Part shown: positions 21,488 through 43,383 of the stretch, piece by piece
Layout of the letters: the number at the start of each line of letters is the position of its first letter
Numbering within the stretch: position 1 is the stretch's first letter
IMG/VR virus record: IMGVR_UViG_3300015263_000962
Coordinates: 1-64,000 of that record
Length of the DNA: 64,000 nucleotides
Reading direction: 5' to 3' (one strand)
Source of the DNA: a virus
Program-made: the position numbers and the translations under genes
The notes under the pieces: model-generated
Told to the model about the DNA's origin: nothing
Databases searched by the model: none
Seen by the model: the letters and a program-made list of their open reading frames with translations, nothing else

Positions 21488-21868
21488 TCAATCAAGCAAA
21501 TGATCGAACGGTTTCTTGTATCGCATACAATGGAAGATCATCGCCATCCGACGCTTCTCTTCATTGGTGATTTCCATATTCTTGTGCCAAGAGCGGCTCC
21601 AAGATGTTGTCACTCCCCGTTTGGTTTCGGTTTCGATTGGTCTGAAGTGATTTGACAACTCTTGACAAATACACATGACCATTTCGGCTTCAGCAGAAAG
21701 ACCGTGACAATCTCTCAGATCTTGCATGGCACAAGAACTGATCGTTGTCTTGTATGGACCTTTGCTGATTTCGATGTCCCGAGGGACGAAGGTATCGCAT
21801 TCGTATGCGACCGGGTTGATCTTCTTGATCTCTAACTTCCAGCTTTGTTGTAGCCAGTGGTTTCTCAT
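21488..21868 (-). CDS. MRNHWL-tagged protein carrying a major-capsid-protein fragment
   Basis: AAAGGAG SD; AMQDLRDCHGLSAEAEMVMCICQEL versus MCP AQQDLRSQHNLDAEAELTAVLAQEI. Confidence 0.75.
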   Translation of the reverse strand: MRNHWLQQSWKLEIKKINPVAYECDTFVPRDIEISKGPYKTTISSCAMQDLRDCHGLSAEAEMVMCICQELSNHFRPIETETKRGVTTSWSRSWHKNMEITNEEKRRMAMIFHCMRYKKPFDHLLD

Positions 21869-22466: not shown

Positions 22467-22786
22467 CAGTCATCATCCTCTTCTTCAATTGTGGCCTTTT
22501 TGACTTTTTTGCTTTTGAGAAGCCAGTCCAAAAACCCCTCTTTACTCTTGCGAGTCATAACCTGAATCTCGTAGGAGTTGGTAGCTGGGTCTTTCTGTCT
22601 TACAGAAATGATCCGGTCGCCGCTCGACACGATCTGTGGAATGGTTTCAAATGGATCGGCACCTTGGTCAATGTTAACGATGACAGTGAGGTGTTTCGTC
22701 ATGGTCAAGTCATAGACCATCAAACTGCTCACCATTACAACCAACCCGACCAACATACCAAAAACGATTCGTTGTGCCCATTGCAT
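22466..22786 (-). CDS. TM plus small alpha/beta (ACT/I9-like) domain protein, paralog of 27495-27923
   Basis: HLTVIV..GADP..TI..IVS..YE..V.T.KSK..FL.WL shared with the paralog. Confidence 0.75.
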   Translation of the reverse strand: MQWAQRIVFGMLVGLVVMVSSLMVYDLTMTKHLTVIVNIDQGADPFETIPQIVSSGDRIISVRQKDPATNSYEIQVMTRKSKEGFLDWLLKSKKVKKATIEEEDDD

Positions 22787-22825
22787 ATTTCACCTCTTGT
22801 TTGTTTAAGATAGTGCGGGCGCATG

Positions 22826-26052: not shown

Positions 26053-26559
26053 TCAGTACACGGTGCTGGCGATCAGTCCTTTGCCGTCTGCACACCATTC
26101 TTCCGCAGTCTTCGTGACCACACTGTTGTCCTCCTGACGTACAGGAAGCACTGTGTCTGATGATAACTGACGCACATCAAACTCGTCAATCTCTTCTTGG
26201 CTCCACTCCGTGATCTCGCCTGTCTTGGGACTACGGAGGGGCTCCAGATGTTGATTCAGAGCGTCCTCACGAGATTCAGCGGCATACCAGTGTTGCTCAC
26301 CATCATCAACTTCATAGACGGCCAGCTTGCGATTCAACCAGTAGTTTTTCATGGTCGGTTCTTCTTTCTTTGTTCTCATATCCCAGAATGGATATTGTTT
26401 GACCCAAATTTCAATCAATCGTTCTTCTACAACAATTGGTTGTTCGGCCCGAGGGCCATCCTTCTCTGCGAACACACATCGAAGGCCATCGTCGTAAACA
26501 GCCATCCCTCGTTTGCACTTCTCGCAAACGAAGTGTTTACGCTCCTCGTCCGTCATCAT
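26053..26559 (-). CDS. hypothetical protein with internal MKNYWL segment (possible second start at 26352)
   Basis: In-frame ORF; MKNYWLNRK at codon 70. Confidence 0.55.
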   Translation of the reverse strand: MMTDEERKHFVCEKCKRGMAVYDDGLRCVFAEKDGPRAEQPIVVEERLIEIWVKQYPFWDMRTKKEEPTMKNYWLNRKLAVYEVDDGEQHWYAAESREDALNQHLEPLRSPKTGEITEWSQEEIDEFDVRQLSSDTVLPVRQEDNSVVTKTAEEWCADGKGLIASTVY

Positions 26560-26988: not shown

Positions 26989-27396
26989 TCACGATCTGAC
27001 GCAATTTTCACGATTGACCCTTTCTGCTTTGACCATCCGTTGCTCGATTTCCTTGATGTGTTCGAACAACTGGAGAGGAACTGCAATGACGTTGCAGTTC
27101 TTGGCGGCTTCTGTTTCTGCCTCCTCCTTGGTGCCGACACCATCCCAGCCTCTTTTCCAAGATAGGCCCATCTTGCCGGGGAAGATTGTCGTCCACTCCT
27201 TGAAGACAGGTTCTTGTATGTTCCTTATGAGAACCGGCCCAATGGCGTTCAGTTCGTCTGGATACAGTTTGTGGGTGGCGGCGTGCTCGTAGGCCATCTG
27301 CCAGATAGGGTCGGTGGCTACATCATCTCTGAGCCGGAAAGTCTCTCTGAAGTTCTTCTCGTGCTCGGGGCTGGCTGGAATTTGTTCTCGTCGCAT
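26989..27396 (-). CDS. hypothetical protein
   Basis: AAGGAGGAG SD. Confidence 0.6.
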   Translation of the reverse strand: MRREQIPASPEHEKNFRETFRLRDDVATDPIWQMAYEHAATHKLYPDELNAIGPVLIRNIQEPVFKEWTTIFPGKMGLSWKRGWDGVGTKEEAETEAAKNCNVIAVPLQLFEHIKEIEQRMVKAERVNRENCVRS

Positions 27397-27494
27397 GGCT
27401 CCTCCTTAAAGAACTCTTTGTATCGGAATCTTTCAGAAAGCACAAGATCATCCAGACAAGCATAAATAATGAAACGTACCACAAGGAGCTTAAA

Positions 27495-27923
27495 ATGGCA
27501 CACAAGGAACCAATGTCGCTGGAAGACCTACCCCAACATCTCAAATCCGTCAGAGCACACGGAGAAACAGGAAGTGCGCCTGTTGTTGGTATGGGCCAGA
27601 TCATCGTGCCTAAGAAATCGTTCGGATGGACCAAGGCCCTGTTCGCCATGATCATGTTCATGACGCTGAGCATCGGTGGCCTTGTGACCTACAACGCCGT
27701 CACACCTCAACATCTGACTGTCATTGTGGGGCTCGAACAAAGTGCCGACCCATCTCAAACGATCTCAAGGATCGTCTCAGACAGTGGAGGCGAGATCATC
27801 GCTGTGAAGCAGAAGGAAGATTCTGTGTACGAAGTCAAGGTATCCACGCACAAGAGCAAGAATTCGTTCTTGGAGTGGTTGCGTAAAGACAAAGATGTCA
27901 AGAAGGCTTCGCTGGAAGATTAG
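27495..27923 (+). CDS. TM plus small alpha/beta domain protein, paralog of 22466-22786
   Basis: AAGGAG SD; ATAAATA upstream; clear similarity to the paralog. Confidence 0.75.
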   Translation: MAHKEPMSLEDLPQHLKSVRAHGETGSAPVVGMGQIIVPKKSFGWTKALFAMIMFMTLSIGGLVTYNAVTPQHLTVIVGLEQSADPSQTISRIVSDSGGEIIAVKQKEDSVYEVKVSTHKSKNSFLEWLRKDKDVKKASLED

Positions 27924-28256: not shown

Positions 28257-29711
28257 TTAGATGATGAAGTTGGCGATGCTCATGCGTGCGTAGAACTTCG
28301 CACCTTCACGGAGCAGCTTCTTGCCGTAGCGGGTCAGAATACCCTTGCGTGGGCAGAAGGATTCAGGATCAAGCACCACAGGTGTCTGTGTCAGCGGGAC
28401 GTATGGGCAGTAGAAGTAGCCCGAGTCCATGTAGCTGTCGCCCTTGTAACCCAAAAGGATCTGGCCTTGTGGGAACAGCGGGTCTTTGTACAGACGCCAT
28501 CTGTTGTTGATCGTACCGACGTACTGGATACCCAGCGACGAGGTGAACGTCTCAGATGGTGCTGGTGCGAAACCTGCGGTTGCCGTTTCGAAGACGGACG
28601 CAACTTCAGGCGAAGTGACGAGCCAGTTACATCCGCCACGGAGGGTCTTACGATGCACGACGTTCGAAACTTCGACGACCTTGACATACAGCGACTCGTA
28701 CTTTTCCTTGATGGTGTCACCGAGGGCTGTGTTGAAGTCCCACACAGCGATAGTACCGGCGTTGTTGCGGAGGTCTGTAAGAACCTCACGGTCGATTTCG
28801 AGGTTGATTTCCTGAGCCAAAACGGCTGTCAGTTCTGCCTCAGCGTCAAGGTTGTGCTGGGATCGGAGATCCTGCTGAGCTTCGTAGCTCCAGACAGCCT
28901 TCAGCTTGCGGGTCTTGGCGGCGATTTCTTCGCTTTCGACCACGAGGTTCACTTCAGGAAGATCCTGATTGCACTCCATGTTGTACTCGTAGCTCATGAC
29001 GAGGTGGTTCGGGCCGGGAGCAACGTCCCATCCGATGGTGACTTCGCCAGTCACGAGGTCCAACGTACCGCTCGTCGGGTTCGATGTCGGAGCACCGATA
29101 GCCGAGAAGCTGAAGGTTCCGTTCTCTGCAACAACATAGGTTGCGACGGCGACCGAACCATCATAGACAGTACCGGTCATGGTGCCTGCGAGAACAGGAG
29201 TGTGCTCCAGCGGAGCGAAAATGGATGTCAGGTCATCGCCAGCGTCAGTGCTGGAAGTTTCGTTCTGCACGAATTGATGCGTGTAGAAGATTTCCAAGTT
29301 GCCATCACCGGATGCCAACTGCTGGAGCGATGTCACGTCGTCCGTTGGGAAGCCGCTTGGTGTCAGGTCGGCACCTCGCATTCCGCCCTTATTGGACGAG
29401 TAGCGGAAACGCAGGTAGTACACCAGACCAGTCGGGCCGAGCAATGGCTGGACCGAGACGATCTTGTTGGCGATCAACTGCGGGTAGATTCTGCGAACCA
29501 GCGGAATGCTGATTCTCTTGAACTGGGCGATGTCCCCAGTATCCGTCATCGCCTCATTCATAAGGCGTTGGTTTTCAAGAAGCACGGCGGCAGCGGCACG
29601 CTCTGTTCGGTTTGTGATGCCATCAAGCATCGACTTGCCGTTTCTCAGCGGACGTGACCAGCGGGCTTCAATCTGACGGGCTTCGTTAAGATATCTTGCG
29701 TTAAAAGACAT
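28257..29711 (-). CDS. gp23: major capsid protein, T4 gp23-like
   Basis: LVRRIYPQLIA..VQPLLGPTGLVYYLR, KTRKLKAVW..QQDLR..H..DAEAEL..EINLEIDRE, GYFYCPYVPL and TRYG. Confidence 0.97.
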   Translation of the reverse strand: MSFNARYLNEARQIEARWSRPLRNGKSMLDGITNRTERAAAAVLLENQRLMNEAMTDTGDIAQFKRISIPLVRRIYPQLIANKIVSVQPLLGPTGLVYYLRFRYSSNKGGMRGADLTPSGFPTDDVTSLQQLASGDGNLEIFYTHQFVQNETSSTDAGDDLTSIFAPLEHTPVLAGTMTGTVYDGSVAVATYVVAENGTFSFSAIGAPTSNPTSGTLDLVTGEVTIGWDVAPGPNHLVMSYEYNMECNQDLPEVNLVVESEEIAAKTRKLKAVWSYEAQQDLRSQHNLDAEAELTAVLAQEINLEIDREVLTDLRNNAGTIAVWDFNTALGDTIKEKYESLYVKVVEVSNVVHRKTLRGGCNWLVTSPEVASVFETATAGFAPAPSETFTSSLGIQYVGTINNRWRLYKDPLFPQGQILLGYKGDSYMDSGYFYCPYVPLTQTPVVLDPESFCPRKGILTRYGKKLLREGAKFYARMSIANFII

Positions 29712-29723
29712 TTGGTCTCCTTA

Positions 29724-30629
29724 TTAAGCCTCTTGAATTCCAGAAAGAACTAGAAGATCGTTCAAGTGATCAGAGCCTTCCATCAGCGTCTCATCATTCT
29801 TGCTCGATTTTTGTGCAGCCGGATTGACGTATTCATTAAGAATGTCTCCGTCATTAGCGGCTCTATGCCCACGCCCACTTGCATTCTGTGCCTTGCTCGC
29901 TCTTTCTTTTCTTCCAACCTTCGAAGCTTCAGTGATAAGCTGGTTTGCAGCCTGTACTTGCTCGTTCAGTTTGTTGTTCTGTGACGAAAGCTTCACATTG
30001 CGTGCTTCCACGATTCTCATCTGGGCTCTCATCTGTTCGATCTGAGAATGTGCTTCTTCGAGCTTCGAAGAGGCAACGCCGTTGAGATCGTCACGGTCCA
30101 TGTAGTCGGACAGGATTTCGGCCATCTTGGCGACGGCTACACGCTGTTCCGAAAGGGATGGATCGTTAAGAATGTCACGCTTTGCGTGCTCGTAGATTTC
30201 GGATTCCTGAAGGTTCAAGAACTCATCGACCTTATCGACCATGAAGTCCTTCATTTCCTTCAGCTTGTTGTCGAACTCGTCATACAGTTCGACTTCGATG
30301 TTTCCGTTCTTGCCCTTCTCCTTCTGGAGTTCCTGATAGGCTTCTTCAAAGCCTTCTTCAAGAGCGGACTCGAATTCTTCTCGTTGCTCATCAATTCTCT
30401 TCATCAGAGAACCGATGATTTCATAAGCTTGCTGATATCCAGCTTCAGCGATGGCTTCGTCGGCTTGCTTTTCTTCAGCAAGCTGTTCGTAAGCTTCATC
30501 AAGCTTCGTTTGGAATTCAGACTTGAGTTCGTTGTAGTTCTCGGCCATCAATTCTTCGACGGCCTTGGCAACCTCACTCACTTGATTCTCTGGGAGAATA
30601 CTCTTCAGTGCTTCGGTGATTCTGTCCAT
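29724..30629 (-). CDS. prohead core scaffolding protein, gp22-like
   Basis: Glu-rich coiled coil between protease and MCP; start coupled to the protease stop. Confidence 0.8.
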   Translation of the reverse strand: MDRITEALKSILPENQVSEVAKAVEELMAENYNELKSEFQTKLDEAYEQLAEEKQADEAIAEAGYQQAYEIIGSLMKRIDEQREEFESALEEGFEEAYQELQKEKGKNGNIEVELYDEFDNKLKEMKDFMVDKVDEFLNLQESEIYEHAKRDILNDPSLSEQRVAVAKMAEILSDYMDRDDLNGVASSKLEEAHSQIEQMRAQMRIVEARNVKLSSQNNKLNEQVQAANQLITEASKVGRKERASKAQNASGRGHRAANDGDILNEYVNPAAQKSSKNDETLMEGSDHLNDLLVLSGIQEA

Positions 30630-31330
30630 TAGCCTAACCTCGACTTGTACTTCTGTGTTTGAGATTTCACAATGCCGCCCAAACAAGCGATAAGTGCTTC
30701 TTTGTTAATCGTATCTATGCAGCTACTCTCAGATTTAATATCCGATTTCGAAGATACGACTCTTTCCAGTGGTCTCGCATCCGCCCGTGGAGGAGCCACA
30801 CTCTCTTTCGCAACAACTTTCTCTTGGAAAGCGGCAAACGTCGAAGGGTCAGCAACAGCGTCAAAGGTGATAAGCTTGTAGCTTTCGCCAATAACTAAGA
30901 TGCCATCTTCGTTGGTCGATCCGTTTCCTACACCTCTCGAACTAATTCCGACTCTCACGCCATCATCGATCAAAGCTTTAAGAACTTTGCCGTGAGGTGT
31001 GTTCAAGATCTCGCCTTCGCCCATCAGCACATTGCCTTCCCACCAGAGGCGAGTAACAATGTGTGAAGCATTGGCATAGTGAATGATGCTATCCGTAGGG
31101 TGATCGAGTTCACCGATCAAACTTCTACCGTCGATTGCTTCTTGAAGGCGTTTCACGCTTTCATCAAGGACGGCAAACGGATACATTCTCTTGTTTTTGT
31201 TGACTGCTTCTGCCTCTTGGAATTTCCCTCGGAACTTCACGAGCCCACGAGAGCTTTTCGTGGACTCAGTGAGTTCGAATTCAAAACCAGAGTGCGTGCA
31301 ACAATCAACGAGTAACATTTGTTGCTCCAT
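30629..31330 (-). CDS. gp21: prohead maturation protease, T4 gp21-like
   Basis: NKNKRMYP, GELDHP, ILNTPHGK, GISSRGVG and FDAVADPST. Confidence 0.95.
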   Translation of the reverse strand: MEQQMLLVDCCTHSGFEFELTESTKSSRGLVKFRGKFQEAEAVNKNKRMYPFAVLDESVKRLQEAIDGRSLIGELDHPTDSIIHYANASHIVTRLWWEGNVLMGEGEILNTPHGKVLKALIDDGVRVGISSRGVGNGSTNEDGILVIGESYKLITFDAVADPSTFAAFQEKVVAKESVAPPRADARPLERVVSSKSDIKSESSCIDTINKEALIACLGGIVKSQTQKYKSRLG

Positions 31331-33610: not shown

Positions 33611-33867
33611 TTACTCGGGCGCAGCCAGTGATCTCTGATCTCCATCAACGATGTTGTATCAAGAGGGCAGCCCAGCGACTCTGGCAATAACGTGTCCATC
33701 GTACACTTGGGGCAAAGAGCCGTCTCGTCATCATCGGTCCACAAATCGATGTCCTCTACCTGAATAACTTCAAGGCAGTTGTAGCAACCACAGACCTGTG
33801 ATTGCAGAACTGCCTCTCTGTTTTTGAAGGCATACATCGGTGCTTTTCTAATGTATTCCTCGCTCAT
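33580..33867 (-). CDS. Cys-rich zinc-finger protein
   Basis: CGCYNC..WTD..TALCPKC..D. Confidence 0.75.
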   Translation of the reverse strand: MSEEYIRKAPMYAFKNREAVLQSQVCGCYNCLEVIQVEDIDLWTDDDETALCPKCTMDTLLPESLGCPLDTTSLMEIRDHWLRPSNHSSPPPKSE

Positions 33868-36413
33868 TAAGACTCCTCTGAGTAATCAATCTCCTCGTCG
33901 TCCATTTCCTTTGCGTAGTTCTGAATCTCAAGATTGAACTTCTTGATTTCTTCCTCATCTGGCTCTGGAATCGGCGAATCCATGTTGGTCTGAGGCGCAT
34001 TACCCGCTTCTGGGGTCGCTTCCATTCCTGTGCTGTCCGCATCCATGTACTTACGCATTCCTTGTGCGCCTTCAGGTGGCGGTTGCTGTTCTTCGCCCGG
34101 CTGACCGCCCAACATTGGGTTCGGACCACCCGGCTCTGTGCTCACTTCGTCCTCGTCTGGGCCGGGCAAACCGACACCAAGCAACTGAGGATTCTGAGCA
34201 ATGATTTGGAGCTTCAACTCTTCCAATTTTTGGATTTTGAGTCGGGCCAACATTTTCTTGGCTTCGTCCTCTGGATATTTCATCCATTTTGTGAGGATGT
34301 CGAAGTCGCTCATCAGTTGTGAGCCCTTCAAGTTGGCCGCATTGTTCAATCGGTTGGTAATGACTTCCGCTCTTGTTAGTTCTCGCCAGTCAGACGGAGG
34401 CGTCATTTTGATCGTCAGATCTTCATAGATCTCTTCCGGGTATCCCAACAATCTCAGATGTCGATCACAGATCTCCCAGAAGGCATCCTCCATGTGAGAC
34501 TGCAATCGCTCGATCATGCGGGCGAACTTGATATCCTGAGCCGACAAAGCAATTCGTGTGCTCTGTGTGTCTTCGTTGTTGAAGTAGTTTCTCGGGAAGT
34601 TCAAAGCCGTGAACAGCTTGTTGCGGAAGTACACAGTGTCATCGATCTCGCCGAGGTTTTGAGCACCGGGCAAAGTCTCAACACGGGTATTTGCATTTGG
34701 ACGAATTGGAATCCAGTAATCTTCGTCTGCCGCTGGAGCGTGCCAGCGTTCCTCAACGCCAGATGCGCCCGGCAGACTTCCGCCCTTCCGGCTGCTCACC
34801 TTCTTCTTCTTGAACTGATCCTTCATACGTTCGATGAAGGCTTCAGCCTTGTTCGGCGGCAACTGGGCCACGTCGATATAGAAAACACGTCGTTCCGGTG
34901 CCCGAGTCAAACGGTACACAACCATGGCGTCTTCCATCATTCTCAACTGATGAGCAGGCCCACGAGCCGCTTCGATCAAAGAAACGCCATATGGATAGAA
35001 GGTCTTTCTGTCATCGCCGATCTTGATGTGAATAATCTGCTCTGGAGCAAACCGAATAGCTGTCGCCTGTTGAAGATCGGCTTCTGTGGCTTGAGTGACT
35101 TCAACCCGAGCCAAGCTCTGGTAGTCCGGGCCTTCCTTCGACTGTTGAAACTCAACCAGCTTGCCTTTGGTTGTTTCGATTCGGTACATGCTATCAGGCG
35201 GCAATGGCACCAGATTAAGAACGCCGTCTTTGGGGTTCTCGGTATCAATGACGATTTCATAGAAGAAGTCGCCCATTGAGAAGAGCCGTTTCGCCATATC
35301 CCACATCTTCTTCTGATCGAAGTTGAGCATCTTGCGATGGAACAACAGATATTCGAGTTCTTCTTGAATCTCGACGTTGTTACAGTTGACGGTCATAACT
35401 CGACCATCATCGTCCTTCTGGCAGTTGTGAACGATTCCCCAATCTGTGGCGAAGTTCTGATGGCCTTCAACTGACAAGTCGTAAACATCGATCTCTCTCC
35501 ATGGTTGAATGCCAATCACACGGCGATGATCCTTCTTCTTGCCGAGCCACTTGAGTTCCTTATTGGAGAAACCGGCTTTCTCGATACGCTCCCTGACTGT
35601 CCTGAAATCACTACCTGTCAACTTGTTGATCTGGCGAACCGACAACCCTTCAGTGACCATCTGGCAATAACTGTTGACCTGCTTCATCGTTTCTGAGGTC
35701 TTGCCGCTCGTCCAATCATCAACAAATTGTCGCTCATGAATCCAACCCTTGTCGTGAGTCCAGATACGGGCGAACTGATTAGTCTTCAGATTTGTAAGAT
35801 CTTGCCGTGCCGAGAGTCGGTAGAATGGCATCAACTCCGATCCATGTTCTAAACGGCCAGCTTCAATCCACGTTCGATCCGCCATCAAGATTCTGTGGTC
35901 CGGTGTGCAGATGAAATAACTACCATCGTCCAGCTTCACCTTAATGGTCATGGCTTTCTTGGTCTTGCGTGGATTGAAAGCCCAGCCTAGCGTGTAGTCA
36001 CGCTTATCGAAGTCGAAGCAATAGACCAAGAAGCGTTCTTCTTCGCTCTCAGCCAATTCTTGTATTGTTTTGAATCCGTGTGGCGTTGCAATTTTTGTAT
36101 CGCCAGCCAAACACGCTTCGTCTGCAAAGACCGTCATCGCCATTTCGATTTCGGCCATATTTCTGAGACGTTCGTACTCTTTATATCTGTGGACACGGTT
36201 CGTCACCGTGGACAAATCCACAAAATCGTTCGTATCTCGCAGACGGATGGCACCACTGCCACCACCCCACGATCCGTCTTGTCCCGCCCGAATATCAGGA
36301 ATTGCGTCAGGTTGTGAAACGCCTGCGCCACCCATATCCCGATGACTTCTTCTGGTCAGCGGATCATCTGTGAATGCGTAAGTGAATACCTTAAAAAAGT
36401 CCCACCAAGCCAT
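33867..36413 (-). CDS. gp20: portal protein, T4 gp20-like, intein-containing
   Basis: MMEDAMVVYRLTRAPERRVFYIDV, EDYWIP, LPGAQNLGEIDD..YF and DIKFARMIERLQ. Confidence 0.96.
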   Translation of the reverse strand: MAWWDFFKVFTYAFTDDPLTRRSHRDMGGAGVSQPDAIPDIRAGQDGSWGGGSGAIRLRDTNDFVDLSTVTNRVHRYKEYERLRNMAEIEMAMTVFADEACLAGDTKIATPHGFKTIQELAESEEERFLVYCFDFDKRDYTLGWAFNPRKTKKAMTIKVKLDDGSYFICTPDHRILMADRTWIEAGRLEHGSELMPFYRLSARQDLTNLKTNQFARIWTHDKGWIHERQFVDDWTSGKTSETMKQVNSYCQMVTEGLSVRQINKLTGSDFRTVRERIEKAGFSNKELKWLGKKKDHRRVIGIQPWREIDVYDLSVEGHQNFATDWGIVHNCQKDDDGRVMTVNCNNVEIQEELEYLLFHRKMLNFDQKKMWDMAKRLFSMGDFFYEIVIDTENPKDGVLNLVPLPPDSMYRIETTKGKLVEFQQSKEGPDYQSLARVEVTQATEADLQQATAIRFAPEQIIHIKIGDDRKTFYPYGVSLIEAARGPAHQLRMMEDAMVVYRLTRAPERRVFYIDVAQLPPNKAEAFIERMKDQFKKKKVSSRKGGSLPGASGVEERWHAPAADEDYWIPIRPNANTRVETLPGAQNLGEIDDTVYFRNKLFTALNFPRNYFNNEDTQSTRIALSAQDIKFARMIERLQSHMEDAFWEICDRHLRLLGYPEEIYEDLTIKMTPPSDWRELTRAEVITNRLNNAANLKGSQLMSDFDILTKWMKYPEDEAKKMLARLKIQKLEELKLQIIAQNPQLLGVGLPGPDEDEVSTEPGGPNPMLGGQPGEEQQPPPEGAQGMRKYMDADSTGMEATPEAGNAPQTNMDSPIPEPDEEEIKKFNLEIQNYAKEMDDEEIDYSEES
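35424..36113 (-). mobile_element. 230-aa intein in the portal protein
   Basis: DEA|CLAGDTKI; block B CTPDHRI; block F VYDLSV..HQNF; terminal VHN|C. Confidence 0.93.
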
Positions 36414-38559: not shown

Positions 38560-39579
38560 CTAAATTCTGCTCATCCCCCGAATCGCTGGCGTCGGCTGCT
38601 GTGGTGCAGGCAGTCCTTTTTGTGCGGGAGGTCCGCTCAACAACTTCTGAGCACCGTCTGCGGCCTGTTGCAGTTGTTGTGCGATTTGAGGAGCACCGGG
38701 ATTCTGGGTCTTAGCCAGAGCATCGTTCAACGCACCGAGGGCGGTGTTGAACTGTTGCAATGTCTGCATATTCGGAGTTGCTTGAGTTGCCCCCGTTGCA
38801 GGAAGTCCCGATCCTGATGTAACAGGGGTGCTTCCGGGCGTATTTACAGCAAGATGTCCTGCTGGCGGAAGCTGTTGAATTTGTTCTGTGTCTTGTGCGG
38901 CCTCTGGTGCCGCTTCTTCAGGTTGGGCCTGTTGCGGCCCGGCTGTTGTTCGACCACCCGACTGCCAAGCATTCACGAAAGCTGGTCGTCCGCCCTGATA
39001 GTTCTGATACTGATCGGCGAACTTCGCAGCGGCATTACCGGCAATACCGGCCATTTGATCTGTGAACCCACCGGGCTGTGTCAGCTTGTTCGCAGCCCAA
39101 TTCACACCCATCTGTGGAACCTGTGCCAGATGGCCCGGTGTCTTGGCCGCTCCCATCAATGCTTTTTGCCACATGGGGGCGTTCTGGGGGTCATAACCCA
39201 TTTGCTTCGCACCCCAGTCCACGACATTGTTCCAACCCTGCCCAGCCATAGCTGGAATTTTGGTTCCAGTCATCAGACCCAGCACGTTCCCAGCCGCATT
39301 TCCTTGCGGCTGACCTTGAGCCGGAATGTTGGGAGGAGGAATAGGGCTGTCATATTCTTCAGGCCCGAATGAGATATCGTCTCGGGCTGCTTCCCTTAGC
39401 AACTGATCCAACAATTCGTCTGTGGATTGGTAGCCGTGCTCCAGAATGACAGGCATTCCGTGCTTCTCCCAAAACTCTTGGAAAGGCACGCCTCTGTGAT
39501 CCAGAACCACGGAGATGAAGTACAACTTCTGTCCAACGGTTACAGAATCACGGTGCTCTCTGTATTCATTGAAGTTCAT
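38560..39579 (-). CDS. putative internal/ejection protein (MNFNEYRE), Gln/Pro/Ala-rich
   Basis: N-terminal ~60 aa shared with the neighbouring gene (F.EY..RD..F..FW....MPV..E). Confidence 0.7.
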   Translation of the reverse strand: MNFNEYREHRDSVTVGQKLYFISVVLDHRGVPFQEFWEKHGMPVILEHGYQSTDELLDQLLREAARDDISFGPEEYDSPIPPPNIPAQGQPQGNAAGNVLGLMTGTKIPAMAGQGWNNVVDWGAKQMGYDPQNAPMWQKALMGAAKTPGHLAQVPQMGVNWAANKLTQPGGFTDQMAGIAGNAAAKFADQYQNYQGGRPAFVNAWQSGGRTTAGPQQAQPEEAAPEAAQDTEQIQQLPPAGHLAVNTPGSTPVTSGSGLPATGATQATPNMQTLQQFNTALGALNDALAKTQNPGAPQIAQQLQQAADGAQKLLSGPPAQKGLPAPQQPTPAIRGMSRI

Positions 39580-40565
39580 TGATCTCCCATGTATCCTTGT
39601 TGACCAGTGGCCTTCATCACATCACGGAGAGGGGTCTTAGGATTCCTCTGCCAATTTCGAAGAGCCGAAGGTGTGATATTGCCGAGGGCATCGCCCTTCT
39701 GTGGGTTGCCTTGGCGACCCAACTGACGAATAGTTTCAGTGCCTTCTTCGCCCGGCTGCCAACCCATTCGATTTGCATGTGCGCCAACACGCTTGAGGGC
39801 GTTGGCTTTGTTGCCGCCAACGATTCCCTTTTCAGCATCACCCACTCGTTGTTGAGCGGCTGCCGCTTGATCTGGAGTTCCGCCGTAAGCGTCCTTCCCA
39901 GCCAAACCGCCATTGACGACGCCTCGCTGTTGTCTTTCAGCTTCGGCTCTCGCCAGTTCGCCTCTTCTGAGACCGCCTTGATGTTGCTGATAGGCGTTTT
40001 GGTAATCCTGTCTGTATTCTGGGCCACCTTCTCCTGCTCGACTGACTTTCGGCATCCAGTTCTGAAGCCATCTGTTGGCAGAATTTGAGAGCAACTCAGC
40101 CGCCTTCCAAGCGTGATGTTGGTTGGGGCTGTTCATAGCCAATCGCTGAGCATCTTTGGTGAACTCGGAGATCTTCTTGGCAAACAGTTGCTTGATAGGC
40201 CCAACGATGTTTTGAGCCTTCTGTCTCATTGCGTCTGAGGCAGGGGCGGGGCCAGTTGGCCTCTGTTGCATTGTGGAAGGGGCAGGAGTGCCCTGATCGT
40301 CGCCGCCCACATTGCCAGCGGGGCTTGAGCCACGATTCATCAGGTTGTTCCAACCGTTTCGGATTCCTTGAAGAAAACCAAACTCCATGAGATCCAATGT
40401 CTCTTCTGGGGTTTGGGAAGCTCCCTCTATCAAAACGGGCATGGCGGTTTCCAGCCAGAAATCGTCGAATCCTTTTCCTGAAAACGCAATTGTTTCGCAC
40501 AAGGAATCGAACTTCTTGAAGAGTTCGATGTCGTCCCGGCGTGATTTGTACTCTGAGAATTTCAT
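39576..40565 (-). CDS. putative internal/ejection protein (MKFSEYKS)
   Basis: Paralogous N-terminus; CTAAATA upstream. Confidence 0.7.
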   Translation of the reverse strand: MKFSEYKSRRDDIELFKKFDSLCETIAFSGKGFDDFWLETAMPVLIEGASQTPEETLDLMEFGFLQGIRNGWNNLMNRGSSPAGNVGGDDQGTPAPSTMQQRPTGPAPASDAMRQKAQNIVGPIKQLFAKKISEFTKDAQRLAMNSPNQHHAWKAAELLSNSANRWLQNWMPKVSRAGEGGPEYRQDYQNAYQQHQGGLRRGELARAEAERQQRGVVNGGLAGKDAYGGTPDQAAAAQQRVGDAEKGIVGGNKANALKRVGAHANRMGWQPGEEGTETIRQLGRQGNPQKGDALGNITPSALRNWQRNPKTPLRDVMKATGQQGYMGDQ

Positions 40566-40616: not shown

Positions 40617-40988
40617 TTAACCATTCAGGAGTTGATCGTTCGGAGGATTGTCTGACTGCTGGTCAAGCTCATCCAACTTGTTCTGTTCGACGGCAATCAT
40701 GGAATTCAGTTGAGCGAGGGATCGATTACGAGCCTCTTCCGAAAATGGCGTATGAGAAGCCATTGCCGTGCCGCTCTGGACGTTTCCCCACCATGTCTCG
40801 AACTGCGATCCCGTGAGGGCTCTTTTCCGGGTCTGGGTCTTCTGAGCTTTATCAAGCTTGTTCATAGCTTGCTTGATGTGACCACGAGCCTCCATCACAG
40901 CCGGATTGTGAGGCATCGAATTCAATGCCGTTGATAGTGCTTGTTGCAGAAGACTCTGGGCCTTCTGGAGTTGATCTTCTTTTTTCAT
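40617..40988 (-). CDS. helical hypothetical protein
   Basis: AAGGA SD before MKKEDQL; the ORF also extends upstream to 41111. Confidence 0.6.
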   Translation of the reverse strand: MKKEDQLQKAQSLLQQALSTALNSMPHNPAVMEARGHIKQAMNKLDKAQKTQTRKRALTGSQFETWWGNVQSGTAMASHTPFSEEARNRSLAQLNSMIAVEQNKLDELDQQSDNPPNDQLLNG

Positions 40989-41122
40989 GTGTTTCCTTGT
41001 ACCACTTCTCGGCGCACGCATAGGAGCAGCCGCCCTTACACGATTTAGTGTGAACCACTTCAATTTTGTACCGAGGAGGGCCGGGGCGACAGGGGATGTT
41101 GACATCCTCATCGCACCAAACC

Positions 41123-41497
41123 TTAATTGTTTTCGGCGTAGTTGTATTCGTAGGAGATAACGAATCCGTCTTGAAGTTCTTCTGGGATCGCAATCGTGCC
41201 CATTTCATAACAAATGAAACCAAATCTCTCATCTGTCTCCTTCCATTGCAGTCGCCCATCTCCATCATCTGTGAACAACTTGTTGTTGCAAATACCGAAG
41301 ATTGAGTTGTTCAACAAGCTGTGAAATTTCAGATTCGCCGTCACACTCATCAACTGTGCGACCCTTTCCCACTTCTGAGGCTTCTCGTCTTGGACGAACT
41401 GCCATTCATAGCAAAGATCCAAAGTGCATCCTTGAGCCAATTCTACGAGATTGAGCGTGTCTTTTACGTCACGTCTCTTCAACCAATGATTTTTCAT
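41123..41497 (-). CDS. MKNHWL-tagged stand-alone paralog of the MCP central (putative insertion) domain
   Basis: LDLCYEWQFVQDE and FVISYEYNY versus MCP LEIFYTHQFVQNE and LVMSYEYNM. Confidence 0.75.
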   Translation of the reverse strand: MKNHWLKRRDVKDTLNLVELAQGCTLDLCYEWQFVQDEKPQKWERVAQLMSVTANLKFHSLLNNSIFGICNNKLFTDDGDGRLQWKETDERFGFICYEMGTIAIPEELQDGFVISYEYNYAENN

Positions 41498-41532
41498 TTT
41501 ACCCTCAATTTGTTACCTAGTTTAAGTTAGTT

Positions 41533-43383
41533 CTACCAGCCGAATTCTTTAAGCAACGCATCGTGTCTGCGTTTGGCCCCGGTGGAGATTGGCAGATCAT
41601 CGTCGTTGATCGACTCAAACATTTCTGCCTCTTCATCAGTCAGCCAGTCGTCAGGAGCATTCTTGGCGAGTTCGGCCCGGATCTCATCCAAAATCTCAGC
41701 TTTGTATGCTTCCGAGTAATCTTCTGTGTCGCCAACGCCAGCAGGCGTGAATCGGCCCATGCTGTCTCGGGCATACAGTGCCAAACACAAAGCCATTACT
41801 GCATCATCATGGAAGCCACCCGAAGCTTCAGCACGTTTTGTCTGAGCATTCCAGATGAAACCCTTCAATTCTTTAACGAATCGACGGCTGCGAATAGCGA
41901 TACTGTTGTTGATCAACCGTGTCTGCATTGTTTCAAGGAACTTCGGTCGATTGCTGCGTGTTGTCTTGATGCCAGCCTGCAAGGTTTTGCTGCTGGTGCC
42001 CTGAGAACTCTGGAACAAGTTCTCGTAGTAGAAGTCGTGTTGCAGTTTCTCCAACACTGTCAAGCCAGCGTTCTGTGATTCAACAATGATCATGGCGTTG
42101 TTGTAGGTGCGACCGACTTGTGCCAAGATCTGAGCAAAGTTGTGCGGTGGACAGAGGTTTGAATAGAACTCTGCACATTGTTCACACGTCACTGCGTCGA
42201 TGACCTCAAAGCAACTGTTGTCGTTCTCTTCGCCCATACCTTCAGCACAGTCAACGCCGATGATGTATTCTCGGCCCTCGACAGGCTCACGCCAGATTTG
42301 TAGAGCCCCACGCTCCCATGTGTCGAGATCCTCCACCCGTTGGTCACGAGCTTCATCTAAGTTGTTCCACTTTTCGAACAATAGACGAATTGGCTCAATC
42401 TCACGAGTTACGAGATCGAGATCGTTGATGATGTCAGGCGGGATGTAAGATTCACCGGCACCCAAGAAGTCACGCATAACTTCCTGAAGCCAACCTTTTT
42501 CACCAAGCTGAGCACGGGTCTGCTTGACCCAAACCGGGTCGTTGTATTCGGGGTGTTCCCAGTAGTCGAGTTCAATGATGTGGAACTCAGAACCGAATCC
42601 CACGCCCTTTTTCGCTCCCATGAACACGTCATAGTACCAGTTGCCCACGCCGTTCACCGTCGAGACGGCGATACAGTGACCACCGGTCGAGATTGTCGGG
42701 AACATGGACTTCCAGTGTTTTTCCATTTGTGGCACGAAGGCCGCTTCGTCCAGAACCAGATATGTGATCGATCTACCACGAGCAGCTTCCGGGGTATAGA
42801 AGAACATCTTGCATCCGGTATCGGCGAACAACTTTTGGTGGTCGTTGTTCTTTTCCATTTCGGGGTGCATCCACTTGGGAAGCTCCTGCAAGGCTCTCTT
42901 AACGATTTCGCCAGAAGCGATAGCTTCACGGTCAGATTTCGACAACACCATGATGGTTTCGTCGAGCTTAAACATACATCGCCACATGCACCACAACACG
43001 GTTACGGTTGTCAGGCCACCTTGGCGGAATTTTGAAAGGATATTGAAGCGGTGTCGCTCATACTCCTGCACAACACGTCGCTGGTACTTGTACAAGATGA
43101 ATGGGAGGAGACCCCGTTTCGGATGAGCAATCTTAACGTACTTGTGGCAGAAGTAAGGAAATGACATGGCACATTTCAGAAGTTCTTCCTTCTGTTTGGC
43201 TACGTCATATTCCTCAATCTCCTCGAAGGGTTCGAGGGGATCAATATCTAGTTCCCATTTGTTGAAGCCGAAATACTCGGGATCATATTCGTTCGCATAG
43301 AACTCTTTTAAGGAACTGTAAGACTTCTTCCAGTTCGAATCGATGTCTGCAAATTTCTTCATGCGGGGTTCCTCCCAACTCAC
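41533..43383 (-). CDS. gp17: terminase large subunit, T4 gp17-like
   Basis: LYKYQ, KFRQGGLTT, LVLDEAAF, VSTVNG, IGVDCAEG and HDDAVMA. Confidence 0.96.
   Translation of the reverse strand: MSWEEPRMKKFADIDSNWKKSYSSLKEFYANEYDPEYFGFNKWELDIDPLEPFEEIEEYDVAKQKEELLKCAMSFPYFCHKYVKIAHPKRGLLPFILYKYQRRVVQEYERHRFNILSKFRQGGLTTVTVLWCMWRCMFKLDETIMVLSKSDREAIASGEIVKRALQELPKWMHPEMEKNNDHQKLFADTGCKMFFYTPEAARGRSITYLVLDEAAFVPQMEKHWKSMFPTISTGGHCIAVSTVNGVGNWYYDVFMGAKKGVGFGSEFHIIELDYWEHPEYNDPVWVKQTRAQLGEKGWLQEVMRDFLGAGESYIPPDIINDLDLVTREIEPIRLLFEKWNNLDEARDQRVEDLDTWERGALQIWREPVEGREYIIGVDCAEGMGEENDNSCFEVIDAVTCEQCAEFYSNLCPPHNFAQILAQVGRTYNNAMIIVESQNAGLTVLEKLQHDFYYENLFQSSQGTSSKTLQAGIKTTRSNRPKFLETMQTRLINNSIAIRSRRFVKELKGFIWNAQTKRAEASGGFHDDAVMALCLALYARDSMGRFTPAGVGDTEDYSEAYKAEILDEIRAELAKNAPDDWLTDEEAEMFESINDDDLPISTGAKRRHDALLKEFGW

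Follow-up and report, generated by a model that had tools for sequence, protein, structure and literature searches.

The major capsid protein (MCP) of a phage is usually viewed as the product of a single, highly constrained gene, whereas the phage DNA described here holds fast-changing genes that appear to be made from pieces of this protein and that stand behind a shared N-terminal tag. The insertion (I) domain of the T4 capsid protein forms surface protrusions and rests on the adjacent subunit at the junction between spine helix and A-domain (PMC9546572). The region of the phage P1 structure 9ukm that is of interest here is also an MCP insertion domain, like those of T4, N4 and phiKZ, and stabilises inter-capsomer contacts (PMC12810830). 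The gene under study, here called ORF124, is homologous in sequence to the I-domain of its own clade's MCP, and its predicted all-beta fold has its best structural neighbours in P1 gp23 (9UKM) and the S6 protein (7X30), which, like T4 gp23 and gp24, are gp23-type MCPs with an I-domain. Unlike these domains, it is a separate gene of 124 aa with no N-arm, P-domain or A-domain. Additionally, an added leader stands at its N-terminus, its rate of change is 5-10 times that of the MCP's own I-domain, and most relatives lack it. Like T4 gp24, it gives a T4-like head module a second gene of capsid origin, derived via duplication of the MCP gene; however, gp24 has the HK97 fold in full and builds pentons, whereas ORF124 consists of the inserted domain only, from which no capsomers are possible.

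The leader can be compared with the capsid targeting sequence of T4, which reads MKTYQEFIAE. The leader found here differs from it, as it is composed of MKN[HY]WL and basic residues, and a protease site after it is inconsistent. To our knowledge, bodies made of MCP pieces do not occur among the T4 internal proteins, unlike several of the leader ORFs described below. The likeness lies in the arrangement, a short conserved N-terminal peptide placed on unrelated, variable and dispensable small proteins, as in T4 IPI, IPII and IPIII, and the internal proteins of T4 are diverse save for their conserved targeting sequence (PMC3012670).

Two other kinds of capsid accessory proteins are also relevant. 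T4 Soc and Hoc, lambda gpD and P4 Psu are, like ORF124, small accessories encoded near head genes, and ORF124 could likewise sit on the outer surface of the MCP. In contrast to them, it has neither a sequence match nor a family match, and it is absent from 24 relatives, whereas decoration proteins tend to be kept throughout a phage group. We know of no decoration protein that copies an MCP domain. Hdf and DarA of P1 and CpmB of SaPI1 are partial paralogs or mimics that bind the shell and affect head assembly or size, and the mimic proteins of P1 also serve as anti-restriction cargo (PMC12810830). The resemblance of ORF124 to these proteins is one of concept only; they are helical binders of the inner surface, and ORF124 is not homologous to them. 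No published description of stand-alone I-domain genes or of tagged capsid-fragment genes was found. The design of a tagged, free capsid-domain gene was likewise found in no family library.

Genomic setting of ORF124

The DNA analysed, hereafter the window, is a stretch of 64 kb from a virus record of 76,382 bp in full, for which the completeness estimate is ~15%. The record is probably derived from marine sediment, as a metagenome. Among the contigs compared with this stretch, those that cover ORF124 came from the probable source sample alone. The head module of the window is T4-like. The MCP (P0002, 484 aa) is of the gp23 type and lies at 28257-29711 on the minus strand (Pfam Gp23 PF07068, E 1.8e-84; phrog_138). 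The scaffold lies at 29724-30686, the prohead protease at 30629-31330, the portal gene (848 aa) at 33867-36413, and the gene of the large terminase subunit (TerL) at 41533-43383 on the minus strand (PHROG terminase large subunit, E 2e-46). Among public genomes, the uncultured phage LR756511.1 (595 kb) comes nearest, with an MCP that is 77% identical and a TerL that is 50% identical. More than 7900 close MCP relatives exist, on contigs of up to 673 kb, and the record is therefore a fragment of one member of an abundant clade of ~0.5-Mb phages. Across thousands of records of this clade, MCP identity is 78-95%.

An earlier note on this DNA had described a 124-aa gene with a MKNHWL start and its own Shine-Dalgarno site after the terminase gene, and direct reading of the sequence agrees on all these points. 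ORF124 (P0001) occupies 41123-41497 on the minus strand, with 124 aa plus the stop codon, and is documented by the ORF listing, its translation, its homologs, the profile and the model. It starts 35 nt past the TAG stop of TerL in the same orientation, and a Shine-Dalgarno-like GAGGG (41502-41506, minus strand) is placed 4 nt ahead of its ATG. An extension of TerL by frameshifting or read-through was ruled out, as the two genes are in different frames and there is a stop 5 codons upstream. According to the family alignment, the leader MKNHWLKRR comprises residues 1-9 (41471-41497, minus strand). By the comparisons with the MCP given below, residues 13-124 (41126-41461, minus strand) are the counterpart of the MCP's insertion domain together with the first linker.

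Directly downstream, an operon-like run on the minus strand is formed by ORF164 (40617-41111), ORF329 (39576-40565) and ORF339 (38560-39579), the first of these genes beginning 11 nt beyond the ORF124 stop. No promoter-like or terminator-like site was found between TerL and ORF124 on the same strand, and no minus-strand terminator-like site was found between 43383 and 37745. It can be seen that ORF124 is positioned within the terminase-to-portal stretch of the head operon. Searches of Pfam and PHROG gave no family for ORF124, ORF164, ORF329 or ORF339.

Homology to the MCP insertion domain

In a BLASTP comparison, residues 13-123 of ORF124 matched MCP residues 125-248 with 25% identity over 128 columns (E 0.002). 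The real pairwise score was reached by 2 of 1000 shuffles of the whole MCP and by none of 1000 in-place shuffles of MCP residues 111-252. Taken alone, this pairwise match is weak and suggestive only. The profile of the 11 small homologs described below, applied to the window's MCP, scored 41.5 bits, or 42.5 bits with ORF124 removed from the profile, and its best score on 2000 shuffles was 10 bits. The matched region is the MCP's own insertion domain at 28974-29339 on the minus strand (E 5.3e-12), exactly where the earlier note had aligned ORF124 colinearly with the MCP. The alignment is thus borne out, and the homology is clear against shuffled controls at the profile level.

Other capsid proteins of the clade were matched in the same way. 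The profile found the MCPs of 24 related records with E 5e-15 to 7e-9, and two more related MCPs with E 2.9e-14 and 3.1e-7. When the small family was compared with 22 MCPs by hhalign, columns 14-127 fell on MCP 126-251 (probability 98%, E 2.2e-13). Moreover, the linker motif GFPxDDxxSLQQ, which precedes the domain in the MCP, is kept in several members of the small family. On the strength of these sequence comparisons, ORF124 is established as a true homolog of MCP residues ~126-251.

Only this segment of the MCP is aligned, in agreement with the claim that ORF124 lacks the HK97 core, and neither ORF124 nor any of the 11 members of its family had a Pfam match with the threshold relaxed to E 10. 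ORF124 is therefore not a member of Gp23 (PF07068) in the Pfam sense. The possibility that it serves as a silent cassette for gene conversion of the MCP was rejected, as 25% identity is far too low and the ORFs have start sites of their own.

Predicted fold

The AF2 model of ORF124 has a mean pLDDT of 81 and contains a nine-strand beta domain that is confident at residues ~30-120. The N-terminus is modelled as disordered: pLDDT stays under 50 for residues 1-11, and its average for residues 1-28 is low. The model of the full MCP is poor (pLDDT 45) because its alignment is shallow; the exception is the insertion domain, whose residues ~150-245 reach pLDDT 70-87, and from this model the insertion-domain part alone was used. 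The strand order is common to the two models, with eight to nine beta strands.

Each model (ORF124 residues 31-124; MCP residues 144-250) was searched separately against 48,161 solved chains, and the best neighbour was the same for both, the insertion domain of the phage P1 capsid protein (9ukm_A 197-305). It was found with Z 7.0 and an rmsd of 4.5 over 84 residues for ORF124, and with Z 7.9 and an rmsd of 3.6 over 101 residues for the MCP. The insertion domain of the jumbo phage S6 capsid protein (7x30_A 150-282) gave Z 5.4 for ORF124 and 7.5 for the MCP. These Z values are middling, and the weight rests on the agreement of the two separate structure searches. Foldseek against the PDB gave no match at E <= 0.001, and the ESM Atlas, with scores <=0.77 and a poor model of its own, gave no usable lead. 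Judging from the models, ORF124 and the MCP insertion domain have the same all-beta fold. The proposal that the matched MCP region is an inserted domain, of which ORF124 is a free copy, is upheld by the shared structural neighbours, and no different fold was predicted for either protein. The surface exposure proposed for this region is in keeping with its T4 counterpart, which forms the surface protrusions (PMC9546572).

A rare and fast-evolving family

When 1.8 billion representative proteins were scanned in full with HMMER, 11 small homologs of 102-148 aa emerged, which align end to end (E 4e-14 to 2e-4, 25-40% identity). M1, K2, N3 and W5 of the leader and the core residues Y30 and G100 are invariant in all 11 members, and Q33, G79, Y97, Y116 and E117 are near-invariant. 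One member, P0014, is shortened. The match of P0012, a repeat protein of 724 aa, in six stretches (E 1.4e-4) is probably an artefact of its repeats, and this protein was not counted as a member.

In the maximum-likelihood tree, a branch supported at 100/99 has all the small proteins on one side. The terminal branches of these proteins measure ~0.2-1.9 changes per site (most 0.8-1.9), compared to 0-0.35 for the MCP I-domains, and are 5-10 times longer. The single well-supported branch and the long terminal branches indicate one old duplication, followed by much faster change. Branches of this length fit an arms-race gene or a weakly constrained gene as well as they fit a protein that binds the capsid lattice.

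Each variant of the family exists on 1-3 contigs only, one of which is 693 kb long. Applied to 24 related IMG/VR records, among them G002 with an estimated completeness of 91% and G005 with 100%, the profile found the MCP alone and no small copy, which indicates that the role of ORF124, whatever it is, is dispensable. Other searches also returned few matches or none. No relatives of P0001, P0005 or P0010 came up when IMG/VR was scanned with each of them, and the alignment-based scan returned an MCP only. One metagenome scan gave a single contig, the scan of GTDB genomes gave nothing, and tblastn of ORF124 against 50,697 phage records gave no match. A word-index protein search with ORF124 found a near-identical copy of the gene only. 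Family members were seen in their genomic context for ORF124 and for one metagenome contig, in which two tandem members stand directly after the portal gene. The family is a rare accessory of head modules and is mobile in position.

At the corresponding site after TerL, LR756511 has a 42-aa ORF (MKNYWLNRRKE...) with no domain. Immediately before it, a 57-aa ORF overlapping the TerL stop (L001 15821-16123) ends in LLKEFGW, duplicating the C-terminal peptide of TerL. This stretch of LR756511.1 has the look of an ORF124 site that was rearranged or has decayed. As to the pseudogene-like decay that the earlier note had named as a refuting outcome, 11 intact, diverged homologs with conserved core residues argue against a dead remnant, and the shortened member and the 42-aa stub go the other way.

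The shared leader peptide

The leader can be written as MKN[HYF]W[LI], usually followed by basic residues, and it also heads unrelated small ORFs of the clade. The pattern ATGAARAAYNNNTGG was found twice in this record, 5 times in LR756511, and 8, 4, 2, 1 and 0 times in five related records, and its reversed control was found in none of them. The bodies behind the leader are unrelated to one another. Synonymous sites differ between the leader copies, indicating that the peptide itself is what is conserved; a signal at the level of DNA or RNA is ruled out by the same differences. The earlier note was right to give weight to the MxNHWL start, since the leader does not vary within the family and heads other ORFs as well. 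A search of related phages for genes joining this leader to an MCP fragment, as the note had advised, did reveal such genes, and they are enriched among the leader ORFs: 4 of 23 leader ORFs match the MCP HMM, and 5 of the 614 ORFs that served as controls do so (Fisher p 1.5e-4).

A T4-type protease site, [LI]-x-E, follows the leader in 5 of 12 family members, including ORF124 (L17-V-E19). Among leader ORFs in general it is present in 8 of 23, compared to 105 of 614 controls (p 0.046). The leader of ORF124 reads MKNHWLKRRDVKDTLNLVELAQG, in which basic residues are followed by no hydrophobic stretch. A Tat signal was rejected as the identity of the leader, as such a signal would need an RR motif with a hydrophobic h-region behind it.

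Other capsid-protein fragments

Four MCP-fragment genes are found in the 76-kb record. Besides ORF124, a second tagged gene of 126 aa lies at 21488-21868 on the minus strand; it starts with MRNHWLQQ, a start for which a gene call is on record, and has an AAAGGAG Shine-Dalgarno site. A segment of its product is 50% identical to MCP 278-303, in the spine-helix region (BLASTP E 5e-6 for the pair alone, 0.003 when all frames are searched; MCP HMM E 2.7e-4; weak PF07068 match). It also bears a weak echo of MCP 444-455. A word-index search found no homologs of this ORF beyond its own record. The window also has a leader ORF of 99 aa at 26053-26352 on the minus strand, beginning MKNYWLNRK inside a longer open frame of 168 aa; its body has no detectable MCP similarity and no Pfam family.

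The other two fragments are untagged and adjacent, ~6 kb past the end of the window, on the plus strand (record 69945-70966; L021 1051-2045). The ORF at record 69945-70625 is 48% identical to MCP 22-110 (E 9e-21; PF07068 positions 1-59), a segment which we take to be the T4 Gol region, and the ORF at record 70544-70966 is 47% identical to MCP 253-282. The two copy the MCP segments that flank the insertion domain. Both end in NWK[TE]EGF, and neither has the MKNxW leader. A 203-aa ORF at record 65102-65713 with a weak MCP-HMM match (11 bits) was rejected as an MCP fragment. When the ORFs of the record were compared all against all, the MCP proved to be the main donor, with 4 of ~6 internal similarities, which argues against a general background of duplication.

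Copies of other MCP pieces are seen in relatives. A 227-aa MKNHW protein of LR756511 is 51% identical to residues 144-209 of its own MCP and groups with that MCP in the tree, which marks it as an independent and more recent copy. A 65-aa leader ORF in a relative is 53% identical to MCP 7-49. It can be seen that new copies of MCP pieces arose more than once. In the 343-kb relative G004 (IMGVR_UViG_3300047160_036266), eight MKNxW-led ORFs are spread over 21554-245329, all on one strand. A tandem pair of leader ORFs in G004 lies ~4 kb from the MCP gene, one of which copies the N-terminal region of the MCP (residues 7-49), and a nearby untagged ORF of 70 aa matches MCP HMM positions 421-440.

Possible functions

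As judged by its sequence, ORF124 is a duplicated, fast-evolving copy of the MCP I-domain fused to a lineage-specific N-terminal leader. It is also a dispensable, strain-specific accessory rather than a core structural part. A core role in decoration or cementing is unlikely because the gene is absent from the 24 related records, and its fast evolution also speaks against a core structural role.

With some reserve, we lean towards ORF124 being a capsid- or prohead-associated accessory protein. It would be made late, together with the head proteins, and its leader would carry it to the assembling prohead or capsid, as the capsid targeting sequence does for the internal proteins of T4. There, the I-domain copy may dock on MCP subunits at the place where the I-domain of a neighbour normally sits, the T4 counterpart of which would be the junction of spine helix and A-domain. 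Once docked, it could tune or cap lattice contacts or travel into the particle, acting as an assembly modulator, as a cap or cement at special sites, or as cargo. In an assembled capsomer the proposed docking site is already filled, so a stable decoration role would need a special site. The place of ORF124 in a late operon, without a promoter-like or terminator-like site of its own, fits a role in head assembly or in the virion better than that of an early decoy. The existence of MCP fragments without a leader (record 69945-70966) counts against this reading, as does the presence of the T4-type protease site in only 5 of 12 family members.

A mimic or decoy of capsid-sensing immunity, or a weapon between phages, would account no less well for the rarity and fast evolution of ORF124. 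A free I-domain and the other MCP pieces could mimic the capsid for a host sensor or for a partner of the MCP and thereby block it, which seems to us rather unlikely. Different relatives carry different pieces (N-terminal region, E-loop region, I-domain, spine helix), and the piece beyond the window at 69945-70625 copies the presumed Gol segment. The family, rare and fast-evolving, with 1-3 contigs per variant and absent from close relatives, has the pattern of counter-defence genes, and it is established that capsid proteins can set off bacterial immunity (PMC9712102). However, the known capsid sensors are activated by binding, so that a decoy must bind without triggering them; the late head operon implies expression alongside the MCP and not earlier; and the leader would have no part in such an activity. 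It is a good deal less probable still that the tagged pieces are dominant-negative subunits which poison the capsid assembly of co-infecting relatives, in the way that satellites use mimic peptides to redirect helper capsids. The MCPs of the clade, 78-95% identical over thousands of records, would be a good target, and a free I-domain could compete for the intracapsomer contact (PMC9546572). Satellites do mimic capsid-assembly partners, as cited for CpmA/CpmB and 80alpha (PMC12810830). Nevertheless, the phage's own MCP would be equally exposed and no resistance feature was seen, and the proposal is purely inferential.

Huge genomes may also tolerate partial duplicates of a gene that recombines often or is strongly expressed, and ORF124 could then be a drifting, near-neutral leftover. 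The patchy distribution and long branches of the family, the truncated stub at the LR756511 site and the shortened P0014 would all be expected from such an origin. Nevertheless, a neutral remnant is unlikely, because the 11 diverged members are intact, with full-length frames, fold-defining residues and an invariant leader. The confident folding of the ORF124 model, the preference for the MCP as donor and the maintenance of the leader as a peptide despite synonymous change are also against it. If the copies were drifting duplicates after all, the case would still show that capsid domains can be released as independent modules.

Beyond the accessory role favoured for ORF124 itself, the tagged genes may form an undescribed class, in which a common leader is joined to varied slices of the phage's own MCP, repeatedly made and predicted to act as capsid mimics; this more general proposal is held as doubtful. 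The slices would be taken from the N-terminal region, the E-loop region, the I-domain and the spine helix. Such mimics could occupy MCP-MCP interfaces during assembly of the giant shell or engage host factors that recognise the capsid protein. The two tagged pieces of the window, the I-domain and the spine-helix segment, correspond to the two sides of the T4 intracapsomer contact. If the pieces bind the capsid lattice, they would represent a novel means of regulating or decorating very large shells, and if they mimic the capsid for host sensors, a new principle of counter-defence. The leader, in turn, could provide a handle by which foreign proteins are loaded, in the manner of the T4 targeting sequence.

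Additional features of the record

ORF329 and ORF339, in the run downstream of ORF124, are tandem paralogs that share an N-terminal domain of 60 aa (32% identity, E 7e-11), starting with MKFSEY and MNFNEY. Both have long low-complexity tails rich in Q/G/A/P, and LR756511 has neither of them in the matching interval. Both are candidate internal or ejection proteins. In the portal genes of two relatives (L001 17641-20214 and L004 369-2984), an intein-like insert (CLAGDT ... HNC) is present near the N-terminus, and the portal of the window, with 848 aa, is similar in length to these two. MCP fragments aside, the strongest internal similarity of the record is that of a paralogous ORF pair on opposite strands, 22469-22789 (minus) and 27351-27920 (plus), with 45% identity over 98 aa (E 4e-24).
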